A DNA stretch of 64,000 nucleotides from a virus: positions 1 through 64,000 of the IMG/VR virus record IMGVR_UViG_3300036800_000175; one strand, 5' to 3'. The position numbers and the translations under genes are program-made. This document shows, one piece after another, positions 8,112 to 59,752 of this stretch. Within the stretch, counting starts at the first letter, position 1. Every line of letters starts with the position of its first letter. Below the pieces are notes generated by a model. The model made no database searches, was not told where the DNA came from, and saw nothing but the letters and a program-made list of their open reading frames with translations.

Positions 8112-9353
8112 ATGATTGACCTGGTCGGCCCGAAAGGGTATGTCCACAATTGGGTGTTCGTAGGCGTTCCCGGCGCAAAGGCTGCCGCGCCCAAGGCGTC
8201 CGGCCCCGCTGCGGCGAAGGCGTCAGGGTCACTGCTGGACGCGTACAAGGGCTGGCGGGACAGCCTGACACCGGCTGAGTCCAAAGCCATGTCGTTCTAC
8301 CAGTCACCCGGGTTCGCCCTGATGAACGGCCAGTTGCGCGGCGTCGACGGTGGCCATTTGAAGGCCAGTGAGCATGCCACTGATGCGGACCTGGCCCGGG
8401 CGCGGCAGGCAAGCAAAGGCCTCGCCGGGGCCATAGCGAAAGCACCGCCGCTGCCCCGCGACACCACCGTGTACCGGGGGTTCGACGCCGGCCAGTTCGG
8501 TGACCTGACCCCCGGCAAAGTGATCACCGACAAGGGGTTCACGTCGGTGTCGGTGAACAACGACGCCGGCGCGGTCGGCCGCGCCACATCCAAGGCACAA
8601 GCGGTGATCACTCTCCCGGCGGGCACCAGGGCGGCCGCCGGATCGGTGCGTGAGCTCGTGCTGCCACCGGGATCCAGTTTCCGTGTCGTCTCCGCCCAGA
8701 AACGCGGAAAGGTGACGCATGTTCGGCTGGAACTAGTCCCGCGCGGCGGCAAGAAGCTGGCGAACCGCCGCGGCCGCGCGCTCGAGTTGACCGGCCCGAA
8801 AGGCTGGTCACACGGCTGGATCCGCGACGGCGACACGGTCACCTACACCGGCAACCTCGGCGTCGGCCGCGCCGACATGGCCCAACTGTCCGGCACCGTC
8901 GCCGGAAAGTACGTGCCGTCCGCAGCGATGATCCCGAAGTTCATCGCCCACCTGCGTGGCAAAGGCATCACGGTCACCTCGAGGCGCGCGCCGGCCGAGT
9001 CGCTGCGGGCGACGCAGACGACCGGGTCGATGCCGATGATCCGGGGCATCGCGGACGACCTGAAATCCGGCAGGCTGGCCGACACGAAACCGATCGTGAT
9101 CAGCTCTGACAACCGGGTGCTAGACGGGCATCACACCTGGGCTGGGCGGGTCCTGGCCGACTCCGAAGGCGGCCGTCCGGATCTGCCGCCGGGGATGCGG
9201 GTTGTGCAGGTCGGCATGCCGATGGCGGACCTGATCGGTGAGGCACGGCAGTTCGGCCGGGCCAGCGGTATCGCGCAACGCAAACCGGGTGAGATCGGCA
9301 ACCCGGCGTTCATGAAACCGAAGGTAGGACTAGCGGCGCGGGGGGTCGCGTGA
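8112..9353 (+). CDS. VIP2-like (R-S-E) ADP-ribosyltransferase domain fused to a ParB-like domain
   Basis: MNGQLRG, TVYRG, GFTSVS, RELVLPPG; second module PIVISSDNRVLDGHHTW; each module preceded by GPKGxxHxW. Confidence 0.8.
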   Translation: MIDLVGPKGYVHNWVFVGVPGAKAAAPKASGPAAAKASGSLLDAYKGWRDSLTPAESKAMSFYQSPGFALMNGQLRGVDGGHLKASEHATDADLARARQASKGLAGAIAKAPPLPRDTTVYRGFDAGQFGDLTPGKVITDKGFTSVSVNNDAGAVGRATSKAQAVITLPAGTRAAAGSVRELVLPPGSSFRVVSAQKRGKVTHVRLELVPRGGKKLANRRGRALELTGPKGWSHGWIRDGDTVTYTGNLGVGRADMAQLSGTVAGKYVPSAAMIPKFIAHLRGKGITVTSRRAPAESLRATQTTGSMPMIRGIADDLKSGRLADTKPIVISSDNRVLDGHHTWAGRVLADSEGGRPDLPPGMRVVQVGMPMADLIGEARQFGRASGIAQRKPGEIGNPAFMKPKVGLAARGVA

Positions 9354-47189: not shown

Positions 47190-47328
47190 AACGCGCGGTG
47201 GGCGGCGTGCGGGGCCTTGCGCGACGGAACTCGGCAGCCGGCTTCACCAGGCTCCGACGAACAACCCTTGCTCCCCGCACGCCGCTTCGGGACAGTCTGG
47301 CCCGTCTCGTCCGCATTGTCTACCTGGT

Positions 47329-47345
47329 CTGTGACTAACGGTCAC
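47329..47345. promoter_or_regulatory. Palindrome TGTGAC-N5-GTCACA upstream of the GntR gene (candidate operator)
   Basis: Perfect inverted repeat in AT-richer intergenic DNA. Confidence 0.45.
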
Positions 47346-47416
47346 AATGGTATGTGTGGCTGATACGGGTGATACCCGGGGTACAGGTGTGACGGGCCCG
47401 GTCGTAACGTTGGGTC

Positions 47417-47668
47417 ATGTCCGGGGAGATCGACCGTTGGAGCGAGACGCCCTACAAGGAGCAGCTCGCCGGGTTCATCCGCGCCCAGATCCAGGCCGGT
47501 GACCTGCAACCGGGCCAGCAACTCCCCAGCGAACAGCACCTCATGGCCACCTACCAGCTATCCCGGTCCACCGTCCGCGGTGCCCTTGAGCTACTCCGCG
47601 GCGGCGGATGGATCGAAACCCACCGTCGGCGCGGGTCACGCGTCAGCCAGAACCCGCCGCCCCGCTAG
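47417..47668 (+). CDS. GntR-family winged-HTH regulator, DNA-binding domain only
   Basis: PYKEQLA..IR..I..G.L.PG..LPSE..L...SRSTVR.AL; TAACGT 5 nt before ATG suggests a leaderless mRNA. Confidence 0.9.
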   Translation: MSGEIDRWSETPYKEQLAGFIRAQIQAGDLQPGQQLPSEQHLMATYQLSRSTVRGALELLRGGGWIETHRRRGSRVSQNPPPR

Positions 47669-47675
47669 CGGCCGC

Positions 47676-47727
47676 AAAAGCAAAGAGCCCCCGGCAGCGT
47701 TCGCGCTGCCGGGGGCTCCCCTTTTTG
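47676..47727. terminator. Bidirectional intrinsic terminator
   Basis: 15-bp stem GAGCCCCCGGCAGCG-TTCG-CGCTGCCGGGGGCTC flanked by A and T tracts. Confidence 0.85.
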
Positions 47728-47739
47728 CATGTGCTGGGG

Positions 47740-47919
47740 TCAGCCGTGGAACATGTCCGGGGACGCCCCGTGGTACATGTCCGGGGACGCCGCCGCCACG
47801 ACCGGGGCGGAGTTCGCGGTGGCGACGATCGACGGGACCGCCACGGCGGCACCGGAACTGATGGTGCCGGCCACGATCATTGTGGCGGCGAACTTTCTCG
47901 GGATGCGGGTGATTCTCAT
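47740..47919 (-). CDS. 59-aa secreted peptide precursor with tandem C-terminal cores ASPDMYHG-ASPDMFHG
   Basis: Manual translation MRITRIPRKFAATMIVAGTISSGAAVAVPSIVATANSAPVVAAASPDMYHGASPDMFHG*; RBS GGAAGGA; terminator follows. Confidence 0.8.
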   Translation of the reverse strand: MRITRIPRKFAATMIVAGTISSGAAVAVPSIVATANSAPVVAAASPDMYHGASPDMFHG

Positions 47920-47962
47920 CGGGCGGGTTTCCTTCCATCGGGGGGGCCTTCAACGTCGGGGA

Positions 47963-48343
47963 TCATGAGACGGGCCACTGCGGTTCCACCAGCGCAGCCA
48001 GCTGGGTGAGCCTGCTGCGGCCCATGAGCGACGGCAGCCCGGTGCCCTCAGCGCGGCATGAGTTGGTGGTGATCTGCCAGGTGCTGCCGAGGTACTCACC
48101 GTCGGCTTTGCTCACCGCGGCAACCCCCGCCTCAGGGGCCAGTTCCCGGGCGATGCTCAGCAGGTCAAGGCCCTTGTCGCGGTCACCGAAAATCAGGGTG
48201 AGGATGTCACCCTTGCCGTCGTTGAAATTGATCGCGGCCACATCAATAGGCCGCTCAGCGGTCTCCGACCACCACAGCGGGCAGACACGCGCCAGACGCG
48301 TAAGGGTGCGGTAGACGCTTGCGTCAGCGTCCTGAAAAAGCAT
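47963..48343 (-). CDS. Hypothetical cytoplasmic protein upstream of the peptide gene
   Basis: RBS GGGGAG; promoter-like TAGACG-18-TAGGGT at ~48380-48409. Confidence 0.7.
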   Translation of the reverse strand: MLFQDADASVYRTLTRLARVCPLWWSETAERPIDVAAINFNDGKGDILTLIFGDRDKGLDLLSIARELAPEAGVAAVSKADGEYLGSTWQITTNSCRAEGTGLPSLMGRSRLTQLAALVEPQWPVS

Positions 48344-48557
48344 CGGCTTCTCCCCGTTGCTCCTGTGTGTCTGGCTGGTACCCTACGTCTGCTTAGTACG
48401 ATCCGTCTAGGTCCCCGGCGGGTACCGCAGGCTGGCTTCCGGAACGTGACCGCGGAGGTGGGGGGGGGCCAGCTGAATCCGGTTACCCGCCGGGTTGCTT
48501 AGCGGGTTAGCGTGAAGCAACGGCTTGACCTGAGTCGTTGTTCAAGGGATTGCGCAG

Positions 48558-48600
48558 GAACGCCGCCCGGCCCCCGCAGCGGGGGGCCGGGCGGCGTTCT
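48558..48600. terminator. Long GC hairpin ending a leftward operon
   Basis: GAACGCCGCCCGGCCCCC / GGGGGCCGGGCGGCGTTC. Confidence 0.7.
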
Positions 48601-48604
48601 TCTG

Positions 48605-48832
48605 CTATGCGCGGGGTACGGCGCCGGGGAGGGCGAGCGCGGCGCGGATCAGCGCCCACGGGCCGTCGCCGTAGCGGTGCCACACGGTGCCGACATCGGT
48701 CGTGTCCCGGGTGACCAGGTACGTGCTGACCGTGCCGGGCGGCAGGCCACTGGTTTCGGTGTTGCTGGTCCGGCGGATCACCAGCGTGCCGATCCGCTCA
48801 TCGTTGACCATGAGCGGGAACCACAGGCTCAC
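48605..48832 (-). CDS. Hypothetical protein
   Basis: Coupled in operon. Confidence 0.6.
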   Translation of the reverse strand: MSLWFPLMVNDERIGTLVIRRTSNTETSGLPPGTVSTYLVTRDTTDVGTVWHRYGDGPWALIRAALALPGAVPRA

Positions 48833-49934: not shown

Positions 49935-50153
49935 TCAGCGACGGCGGGCGCGGCGGCGGCGATCCGTCTCAGCGTGCGCGGCCAGCAGGCCGTACACGGC
50001 CAGGAAGACGATCAGCGCGGCCAGGACGGTGATGAGGACGCCCAGCCACAGGGCGGCGATCCACGCCCAGGTGACGCCACCGGCGGCGAAGATGATCAGG
50101 TACAGCCAGCCCGCGCCGGCGACGCGGCGGCGGCGGCGGATGCATGCTCTCAC
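49935..50153 (-). CDS. Small two-TM protein, possibly leaderless
   Basis: Hydrophobic; GTG ~8 nt from the -10 of promoter copy 8. Confidence 0.55.
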   Translation of the reverse strand: MRACIRRRRRVAGAGWLYLIIFAAGGVTWAWIAALWLGVLITVLAALIVFLAVYGLLAAHAETDRRRRARRR

Positions 50154-50160
50154 AGCCCCC

Positions 50161-50189
50161 ACTATACCCGGTCAAGTTGACCACGTCTA
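50161..50189 (-). promoter_or_regulatory. Promoter/operator copy 8 (TAGACG-17-TATAGT)
   Basis: Perfect GGTCAA-G-TTGACC palindrome. Confidence 0.8.
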
Positions 50190-53760: not shown

Positions 53761-54365
53761 GCGGCCGCCGCGTCGCTGGCCAGTTCCTCGAGCACGCCTG
53801 CGTACTCGCCCAGGTCGGCGGGCACCGTGCCGTAACCGAGGGGGTACCGCTCGAGGTTGTGCACCTCAGCGGCCATGACCTTGAGGTTGTGGTCGGTCAG
53901 CCACGCGCGGGCTAGCCGGCTGCTGCGGGTGCCGGCGCGGATCTTGACCAGCAGCACCTGGGGGTACACCGGGGACACGGCGTCGATCTCGGCGGCCAGG
54001 GCGAACGTGTCGGGCAGCTGCTCAAGTTCCATGGGGCTCGGGGCGACCGGGATGAGCAGCTCGTCGGTGATCATCAGTGCTTTGCGCAGCAACAGGTCGT
54101 CGTGGGGGCTGGTGTCGATGAGGATGTCATCGAAGTCGCCGGCGATGGCCTGGATGCTGCGGACCAGGTCGTCCCCGAACGCGAGCACGGTGACTGACCC
54201 GGGCCAGTCTGGGGCCAGGGCTTTCCATTTCAGGCAGGTTTTGTTGGTGGTGTCCTCATCCACGATGAGGACCCTCCGCCCTTGCCGGGCGAGGGCGAGC
54301 GCGAGGTACACGGTGGTCGTGGATTTCGCCACGCCACCTTTCAGATTGCCTATGGTTGCCTTCAT
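53757..54365 (-). CDS. parA: ParA-family partition ATPase (short, type Ib-like)
   Basis: NLKGGVAKST, LIVDED, ILIDTSP, LIPVAPS. Confidence 0.9.
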   Translation of the reverse strand: MKATIGNLKGGVAKSTTTVYLALALARQGRRVLIVDEDTTNKTCLKWKALAPDWPGSVTVLAFGDDLVRSIQAIAGDFDDILIDTSPHDDLLLRKALMITDELLIPVAPSPMELEQLPDTFALAAEIDAVSPVYPQVLLVKIRAGTRSSRLARAWLTDHNLKVMAAEVHNLERYPLGYGTVPADLGEYAGVLEELASDAAAA

Positions 54366-54458: not shown

Positions 54459-54764
54459 ATGGCCCCCCAGGCGCGCATGACGCTGCCGACCGCGCTGGTG
54501 CTCGCCCGGCTCGCGACGGCCGCGCCCGGCGAGCTGTACGGGCGGCAGATCATGACCATGACCGGGCTCCGCGGCGGCACCATTTACCCGCTGCTGGCCC
54601 GCCTCGAAAGCAGGGGCCTGGTCGAATCGCGGCGCGAGACAATCAACCCGGCGAGGGAAGGGCGGCCGCCGCGCCTGTTCTACCGGCTCACCGACGCCGG
54701 GAAGGCTGAGGCGCAGGCCCACGCCACCCGGTACAGCGCCACCTTCACCCCTGGGGAGGGATGA
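54459..54764 (+). CDS. PadR-family regulator
   Basis: YG..I...GL..GTIYPLLARLE..GLV, RPPRLFYRLT..G. Confidence 0.9.
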   Translation: MAPQARMTLPTALVLARLATAAPGELYGRQIMTMTGLRGGTIYPLLARLESRGLVESRRETINPAREGRPPRLFYRLTDAGKAEAQAHATRYSATFTPGEG

Positions 54765-59110: not shown

Positions 59111-59374
59111 TCAGTCGGCAGGAGCCAGGTCGCGGGCCGGGCGGATGAACACCGCGAGATAGGCGCCGTCGTCGTCGGACAGGAAGTCATCGAACTCGCC
59201 GGCCTTGGCGCCGTCGATGAATGCGGCCAGTTCAGCGCGGGTGTATCGCAGCTGCGGGCCGTCCGGGTCGCGGCTGTTGCGCATCGCGATGTTCCCGTCA
59301 GGCAGTTCGGCCACCTCAACGCAGTTGCCGTTGTGGGCGCTCCAGCTGGACTTGCGCCAGGAAAGATCATCCAC
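59111..59374 (-). CDS. DUF397 (BldB/AbaA-like) protein
   Basis: WRKSSWS..NGNCVEVA..RNSRDPDGP.L..T..E..AF..G.K.GEFD. Confidence 0.9.
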   Translation of the reverse strand: MDDLSWRKSSWSAHNGNCVEVAELPDGNIAMRNSRDPDGPQLRYTRAELAAFIDGAKAGEFDDFLSDDDGAYLAVFIRPARDLAPAD

Positions 59375-59752
59375 GGGTTGGTGTCTCCGTCCGTACGCCC
59401 GGCGGGTGGCCACCCCGGAGTCCCCAGTGTCCCGTTCAGCCGCCTGCGGGGTGGCCCCCCAGGGTGCCGTAGCGGGATCAACCTACCGGCTCTGCGGGGC
59501 GGGTTGCAGGCGGTTGGCTGCATGTACGGGAAGGTACCTTACGCGCTACGCCCGGCGGGGGACAACCCCTCCCGGACCAGGGCAAAAACCGCTAGCTTTA
59601 CATAATCAACGTTATCGGCGTAAGACAAAGGGGGGCAAACCGGGCACGTCTCGTCTCACCGAACATGTCGTTTGCCAGCCATCATGTCGCTGTCAGCGCC
59701 GTCCCATAGGCTCGCAGGCACCACGTTTGGCCTACGTTTCGGAGACCCCCCC

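Follow-up and report, generated by a model that had tools for sequence, protein, structure and literature searches.

We analysed a window comprising the first 64 kb of the IMG/VR virus record IMGVR_UViG_3300036800_000175 (record length 109,876 bp, below 110 kb; rated complete, 100%, by CheckV) and describe a cassette of two leftward genes, orf126 and pep59, flanked by the lysis genes on one side and the plasmid-maintenance arm on the other. With a hairpin on either side and a presumed promoter region of its own, the pair appears to form a self-contained accessory cassette, and we tentatively propose that its second gene, pep59, yields an exported short peptide factor whose receptor is possibly encoded by the host. 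This proposal follows from the coding quality of pep59, the export-type N-terminal end that sets it apart from the other small open reading frames (ORFs) of the phage and the presence of a duplicated unit that extends exactly to the stop codon.

From the gene anatomy in this one metagenomic genome we infer that the pep59 product would leave the cell by the Sec route, with signal peptidase cleaving it after ATA, ANS or AAA. Cleavage would release an acidic tail of 15-24 residues consisting of the nearly identical units (A)SPDMYHG and (A)SPDMFHG, and extracellular proteases could trim this tail to peptides of 7-8 residues. The released peptide would then be a diffusible factor comparable to a Phr/AimP-like signal, with a receptor that is perhaps host-encoded, while orf126, if it takes part, would be a co-expressed cytoplasmic partner.

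The pep59 gene and its tandem repeat

By its composition pep59 looks like a real coding gene. Its G+C contents at the first, second and third codon positions are 0.55, 0.60 and 0.90, respectively, and the third-position signal (GC3) changes frame sharply at the border between orf126 and pep59. A chance ORF in the GC-rich DNA between orf126 and the terminator, without any function, is thus a very unlikely explanation. Although the lack of homologues and a length just under the usual gene-calling cut-offs would agree with it, the GC3 of the antisense frame is only 0.82, the frame switch coincides with the gene border, a ribosome-binding site is present, the terminator starts 22 nt past the stop codon and an in-frame duplication has been preserved with a conservative change.

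The N-terminal end of the predicted product carries four basic residues among the first nine (charge +4) and is followed by a hydrophobic segment rich in Ala, Val, Gly and Ser from residue 10 to about residue 35, beyond which the hydrophobic run continues, little interrupted, to residue 44. Small-x-small sites are found at ATA/N, ANS/A and AAA/S. The remaining C-terminal tail of 15-24 residues is polar and acidic (pI 5.0) and continues as ASPDMYHG-ASPDMFHG up to the stop codon. No other small ORF of the 110 kb has, like pep59, a strongly basic N-terminal end and a hydrophobic segment along with a ribosome-binding site and a tail that is short and polar. Export and cleavage were judged by rule of thumb from charge, hydrophobicity and the small-x-small sites, and few uses are known for a cleaved product of 15-24 residues.

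The two copies of the 24-bp repeat are separated by a conservative Tyr-to-Phe replacement and a synonymous difference, with the second copy abutting the stop codon, and this divergence rules out an assembly artefact. Tandem cores that are similar but not identical have been documented within a single phr pro-peptide gene (PMC5199041), and a Sec propeptide of 10-100 residues beside a partner gene corresponds to the RRNPP convention (PMC10075063). A sequence-only reading of the same DNA had pointed out the minus-strand ORF of 59 residues with its ribosome-binding site, basic N-region, hydrophobic stretch and AxA-type sites as well as the two tandem repeats ending at the stop codon; all of these were confirmed, the repeat independently by Tandem Repeats Finder. 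The resemblance it had noted to the layout of Phr/AimP precursors, in which a signal-type N-terminal end precedes short C-terminal cores, also stands on heuristic grounds.

The hydrophobic stretch bears on a different function as well. If left uncleaved, pep59 would be a small type II (N-in, C-out) membrane moron protein with a surface tail of 15-20 residues and a role in superinfection exclusion, in defence, in controlling a membrane protein or in the timing of lysis, and orf126 would be either unrelated or a cytoplasmic partner. This is the main alternative and, at a probability slightly below that of the exported factor, somewhat unlikely in our view. In its favour, the hydrophobic run from residue 10 to 44 has few breaks, the phage encodes several other small transmembrane ORFs (e.g. 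49935-50162 in the adjacent operon), the insulated cassette lies in a region likely expressed from the prophage, and small membrane proteins are far commoner in phages than secreted signals. On the other hand, the stretch is interrupted centrally by Gly, Ser and Pro, and these residues, the canonical AxA site and the Ala-rich spacer are features typically shown by cleaved signal peptides of actinobacteria. We know of no membrane anchor that ends in tandem copies of a polar unit directly before the stop codon. Such a unit does have a pro-peptide precedent (PMC5199041), and no PADLOC defence model matches either pep59 or orf126.

The composition of the repeat units, each of which contains Asp, Met, an aromatic residue and His, would also be compatible with an exported metal-binding factor in which the two units of the released peptide provide a Met2His2 site for Cu(I)/Cu(II). 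Copper sites formed by Met, His and aromatic residues occur in CusF-type periplasmic copper proteins. With no copper or metal genes nearby and no homology to any metal-binding family, this function is extremely unlikely, and we know of no precedent for a metal-binding exported phage peptide.

Several other assignments were considered for pep59 and dropped, namely a precursor of the biarylitide type or of another ribosomally synthesized and post-translationally modified peptide (no modifying enzyme is encoded close by, and such precursors do not typically carry a Sec signal), a lipoprotein (no Cys), a Tat substrate (no twin arginine) and a bacteriocin (tail short and acidic). Pfam, PHROGs, NCBIfam and PADLOC contain no family to which the gene belongs, no match was obtained with a degenerate DNA pattern for two tandem units of PDM[YF]HG, and the leads from the protein atlas all remained below 0.9.

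Cassette layout, genome setting and the orf126 family

The positions of the cassette elements and of the genes around them are collected in Table 1. pep59 follows orf126 in the same direction after 43 nt, and since this gap holds neither a hairpin nor a terminator, the two genes are probably co-transcribed as one transcript. The bidirectional terminator downstream of pep59, which is common to pep59 and the convergent GntR gene and had been predicted between them from the letters alone, is well supported (RNA fold of -46 kcal/mol, z -5.8); Rfam returned only sub-threshold hairpin look-alikes, including one at this position. On the opposite side, the long GC-rich hairpin that closes the upstream leftward operon probably shields the cassette from read-through.

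Table 1. Positions of the cassette elements, neighbouring genes and remote relatives of orf126 (window coordinates unless a separate locus, L014 to L016, is named)
Feature	Position	Strand	Basis
orf126, 126 codons; acidic helical protein, predicted cytoplasmic	47963-48343	(-)	GC3 0.79, homologues
orf126 ribosome-binding site GGGGAGAAG	48347-48355	(-)	read from sequence
Candidate -10 TAGGGT (TANNNT-type)	48380-48385	(-)	read from sequence
Non-coding region upstream of orf126, 261 bp; presumed cassette promoter	48344-48604	(-)	inferred
Long GC-rich hairpin, 18-bp stem, closing the upstream leftward operon	48549-48608	(-)	inverted repeat I1, palindrome scan
pep59, 59 codons; Sec-type pre-peptide (predicted)	47740-47919	(-)	ORF and translation
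pep59 ribosome-binding site GGAAGG, 11 nt 5' of ATG	47931-47936	(-)	read from sequence
Tandem repeat, period 24, 2.0 copies, 95% matches	47744-47791	(-)	Tandem Repeats Finder
Bidirectional intrinsic terminator common to pep59 and GntR gene	47685-47718	both	15-bp stem, 13 GC pairs, T-runs on both strands
GntR-type winged helix, 83 residues, converging on the cassette	47417-47668	(+)	Pfam GntR 5e-17
Perfect palindrome TGTGAC-TAACG-GTCACA (N5 spacer) upstream of GntR gene	47330-47346	both	
ParA-type AAA_31 match	54012-54356	(-)	
PadR gene	54459-54764	(+)	
Remote relative, Streptomyces sp. NBC_01527 plasmid	L014:4974-5438		
Remote relative, WRightOn gp85	L015:2459-3166		
Remote relative, JPandJE gp83	L016:2425-3120		

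A promoter specific to orf126 had also been postulated and was not recovered in this form. The sigma-70 consensus scan of the locus gave no promoter match, and the candidate TAGGGT hexamer was the sole promoter-like element identified upstream of the gene; the absence of a sigma-70 consensus match is usual in Actinomycetota. The same upstream region contains a G9 run (nine C on the coding strand, 48460-48468), possibly a slippage-prone tract.

The record originates from a soil metagenome and has an overall G+C content of 69.7%. All matches of its major capsid protein, at 40% identity or less, were to actinophage capsids except for one cyanophage. Neither a tyrosine nor a serine recombinase was detected in the whole 110-kb record, and this lack of an integrase combined with the ParA-type ATPase makes a phage-plasmid, i.e. 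an extrachromosomal prophage, of a soil actinomycete the most likely nature of the record. The cassette sits among leftward genes near the ParA-type gene, and for a hairpin-insulated unit in an integrase-less phage this position fits genes expressed from the plasmid prophage. Pfam and PHROG scans placed a holin and a GH25 endolysin directly to the left of the locus, so that both the lysis-gene neighbourhood and the ParA gene reported earlier were found. A perfect 13-bp inverted repeat with a 58-nt loop (47202-47285) lies just past the endolysin stop codon and may end the late operon. Elsewhere in the window, the 413-residue ORF at 8112-9353 has a weak match to PHROGs of the ADP-ribosyltransferase exoenzyme type (3e-7), and the C-terminal part of the 595-residue ORF at 14856-16643 matches large phage DNA methyltransferase families (3e-51).

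The locus is present in only one public run, probably its source, and among the contigs of this run the source contig alone covers it, with 0 differences and no variants. No run in the RNA data was listed as carrying the locus. At the DNA level, neither the locus, compared with phages, nor the ParA region, compared with plasmids, had a match.

orf126 encodes an acidic protein (pI 4.7; 4.4-6.7 across its family). One close homologue with 66% identity (P0002) occurs on short Logan contigs, and approximately 25 further, more distant small proteins match orf126, all of them metagenomic (alignment A2). Together they represent a rare, unnamed domain family of soil metagenomes. The AlphaFold2 model built from A2 reached a predicted local distance difference test score of 78.8 and a predicted template-modelling score of 0.69 and shows a compact helical domain spanning residues 1-100, with four or five irregular helices and long loops. 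No match to orf126 was found in Pfam, PHROGs, NCBIfam, PADLOC or the PDB sequence profiles, Foldseek searches of the model against PDB and BFVD returned nothing below E 1, the best Z of 3.9 in the wide VIA-align comparison is not meaningful for a helical model, and the protein atlas gave unnamed or weak matches only.

Relatives outside the metagenomic set were reached by bridging via family member P0009, which led to a 154-residue hypothetical protein encoded on the 898-kb linear plasmid of Streptomyces sp. NBC_01527 (WP_331762509.1; hhalign against A2: Prob 97.1, E 6e-11). This plasmid protein in turn led to the N-terminal ~80 residues of ~235-residue hypothetical proteins in 25 Streptomyces phage records. 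The two records inspected both belong to Beephvirinae (WRightOn gp85 and JPandJE gp83), and for WRightOn gp85 hhalign against A2 gave Prob 87.1 and E 4e-6. A common signature consisting of ID..LD, an xLxQxFG-type helix, GL..L and then GF/GV connects orf126 with the plasmid and phage proteins. The architectures differ in that the domain is fused to a C-terminal part corresponding to phrog_5368 in gp85 and gp83 and carries a Cys-rich extension in the linear-plasmid protein. Judging from these profile alignments, the orf126 domain is remotely related to an unnamed, uncharacterised domain of Streptomyces phages and plasmids and does not appear to be generally tied to a secreted peptide.

Further searches for related loci returned nothing comparable. 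Scans of viral, genome and metagenome collections with orf126 alone and with alignments A1, A3 and A4 yielded no locus, tblastn against phages with orf126, P0004 and P0024 as queries gave no match, five IMG/VR contigs with the p165 neighbour gene exhibited neither synteny nor an orf126 homologue, and lysin and GntR queries retrieved no related viral loci. A predicted complex of orf126 (from A2) with pep59 residues 30-59 scored 0.00, which gives no verdict and is unused as evidence either way.

The idea that the 126-residue protein senses or processes the peptide found no support: orf126 is acidic, has no known domain or fold, and its remote relatives are not accompanied by a signal-peptide mini-ORF. 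If involved at all, it would, by analogy with Rap, have a protein and not DNA as its target.

The GntR neighbour and the shared 12-mer

The 83-residue protein encoded convergently to the cassette consists almost entirely of a winged helix-turn-helix (wHTH; PF00392, E 5e-17, 61.8 bits, residues 15-76), after which only 7 residues remain. No C-terminal effector or oligomerisation domain of the FCD, UTRA, aminotransferase-like or YtrA type was detected, and NCBIfam matches covered only the first 60-85 positions of models that are 120-480 positions long. The earlier description of a GntR wHTH without ligand domain was thereby borne out (Pfam residues 15-76 of 83). Three further GntR-like genes, beyond the window at 72352-72465, 88238-88426 and 90272-91096 of the record, bring the total in the phage to four. 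The last of these three encodes a full-length GntR-like protein of 274 residues beside a 255-residue ORF. A 94-residue ORF at 92049-92333 looks WhiB-like by eye.

The perfect palindrome upstream of the GntR gene has no second copy in the 110 kb, even when 2 mismatches are allowed, and is likely the operator for GntR autoregulation. The regions upstream of GntR and orf126 had no motif in common other than GC-rich stems that belong to terminator hairpins. On this sequence evidence, the simplest reading is that GntR is an independent, self-regulated small repressor whose sharing of a terminator with the cassette would be fortuitous.

A connection between the two genes is nevertheless hinted at by the 12-mer CATGTCCGGGGA, which occurs three times in the 110 kb (47416-47427, 47752-47763 and 47776-47787). 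Each pep59 repeat contains one copy and the third one spans the GntR start codon on the (+) strand, 325 nt away, compared to 0.03 matches expected in the window. As a consequence of this arrangement, the translation start of GntR and the 3' part of the pep59 mRNA are complementary to each other. The corresponding duplex ranked third among 169 gene starts (top 2%, z ~ -2.8), with a trivial antisense ORF at rank 1, and was near the top among 6656 genome windows. The GntR mRNA may be leaderless, given that only 6 nt separate its ATG from the end of a -10-like hexamer, TAACGT. The sharing of the 12-mer could reflect chance, regulatory RNA pairing or a common protein-binding site, and we consider a coupling of the pep59 and GntR genes through it suggestive but not decisive.

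Were the pairing functional, the two UCCCCGGACAUG copies in the 3' part of the transcript would bind the GntR start and block its translation, a role that would be compatible with pep59 being coding. The three occurrences of the 12-mer, two in the repeats and one across the GntR ATG, and the position of the duplex in the top 2% of the gene starts would agree with such a regulatory RNA. Against it, the gene start of 59111-59413 slightly outscores that of GntR, most of the repeat sequence is base-paired inside the mRNA in its minimum-free-energy structure, the pattern represents a single coincidence with no comparative support, and the only Rfam signal is a sub-threshold hairpin match at the terminator. 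We judge this role highly improbable.

The same coupling has to be weighed for a full arbitrium-like circuit, with orf126 as sensor or processor of the peptide and the 83-residue GntR as the transcriptional output that decides between lysis and lysogeny. Its partner-then-pro-peptide order resembles aimR-aimP, the locus has the lysis genes next to it and the maintenance genes in its vicinity, and the 12-mer in the repeats and at the GntR start would fit a link between the two transcription units. However, orf126 is acidic with no HTH or TPR signature, its remote homologues have no peptide neighbour, the GntR palindrome occurs only upstream of GntR itself and this region has no motif in common with the one upstream of the cassette, the 83-residue wHTH lacks a ligand domain to receive a signal, and the three other GntR-like genes indicate that the neighbouring one is not special. 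GntR as the output, as proposed in the sequence-only reading, found no support, and we assign the complete circuit very little probability.

Relation to known systems and weighing of the peptide-factor proposal

For comparison with the RRNPP systems we used the criteria listed in PMC10075063. With 59 residues pep59 falls within the range of 10-100 residues for the propeptide. In contrast, receptors of 250-500 residues have no counterpart here, where the partner has 126 residues and the other neighbours 75, 83 and 154. Pfam gave no TPR on orf126 or its neighbours and neither TPR_12 nor TPR_16 had a match in the 110 kb, in line with the earlier reading, which had seen no large TPR (RRNPP) receptor. 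Where RRNPP pairs have directly adjacent propeptide and receptor genes, pep59 lies 43 nt behind orf126, which is a putative receptor at most.

Similarities to arbitrium (AimR-AimP-AimX of SPbeta-like Bacillus phages) include the temperate phage, the short predicted Sec-type pre-pro-peptide with a presumed active C-terminal end, the peptide gene directly downstream of a co-oriented partner and the proximity of the locus to life-style genes. AimR is a peptide-binding transcription factor with an HTH and a TPR part, whereas no AimR-like protein was found here and orf126 has no detectable similarity to it. Similarly, an aimX-type output directly downstream and controlled by the receptor is replaced by a terminator followed by the convergent GntR gene. 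The mature arbitrium hexapeptide derives from the C-terminus of its precursor and re-enters the cell via Opp; compared to this one C-terminal hexapeptide pep59 has two units of 7-8 residues, a layout that is compatible. Arbitrium hosts are Bacillota, while the host here belongs to Actinomycetota and nothing is conserved in relatives. On these criteria the locus is not a member of arbitrium or RRNPP but may work likewise with a different receptor.

Rap-Phr systems with tandem Phr cores, as known from Bacillus (PMC5199041) including phage-borne examples (PMC8027211), also have several non-identical putative cores per gene and the receptor-then-peptide order. If orf126 were the receptor, it would, like Rap, lack a DNA-binding domain. 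Differences concern Rap itself, a TPR protein of ~380 residues to which orf126 has no sequence or fold relation, and the Phr cores, which comprise 5-6 residues compared to 7-8 in the pep59 units.

A further point of comparison is provided by the morons of actinobacteriophages. Small membrane or exported moron proteins are expressed by actinobacteriophage prophages, e.g. from the prophage-mediated defence genes of mycobacteriophages. The cassette resembles them as an insulated accessory unit oriented opposite to the late genes at the border of lysis and maintenance functions, in its slightly atypical composition (orf126 GC3 0.79) and in the lack of relatives in related phages. It differs in having no similarity to a known defence or exclusion protein and in its tandem polar C-terminal units, which do not characterise those proteins.

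Several results weigh against the proposal of an exported peptide factor. Searches for pep59 relatives found none in a 5.8-billion-protein index and none in IMG/VR by protein patterns, and without relatives there is no conservation or co-variation signal for the gene. An export-type mini-ORF beside the domain gene was found in none of the three remote-relative loci (one plasmid, two phages), which makes orf126 less likely as a dedicated peptide receptor. No candidate for a receptor of a known peptide-binding type was detected in the phage by Pfam on the neighbouring genes and by TPR_12 and TPR_16 over the 110 kb. The hydrophobic stretch at residues 10-44 could equally serve as an uncleaved membrane anchor. 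Literature searches on peptide communication in actinophages returned no paper, and peptide quorum sensing is not established in Actinomycetota, where the known signals are small molecules (PMC10075063).

The sequence-only reading had gone further and suggested an independent actinophage signalling system. Part of this suggestion survives, as the gene is real, the pre-pro-peptide layout is present and the partner is co-oriented, whereas GntR as output and orf126 as sensor are unsupported. A signalling system independent of TPR receptors and RRNPP, in which the variant heptapeptides SPDMYHG and SPDMFHG would be sensed by orf126 or a host receptor and would tune maintenance versus lytic growth, with the pep59 mRNA perhaps silencing the mini-GntR by means of the 12-nt match, is in our estimate rather unlikely.

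The present case is a singleton locus and not a demonstrated system. To our knowledge, phage peptide communication, i.e. arbitrium and phage Rap-Phr, is known only in Bacillota and always with TPR receptors. If the peptide-factor proposal is true, the short synthetic peptide would offer a direct experimental handle, and a Sec-exported tandem-core peptide from an actinophage-plasmid would bring phage signalling to a phylum and a receptor type that are both new to it. The orf126 family provides a first grouping for hitherto unannotated genes of Streptomyces plasmids and Beephvirinae phages.

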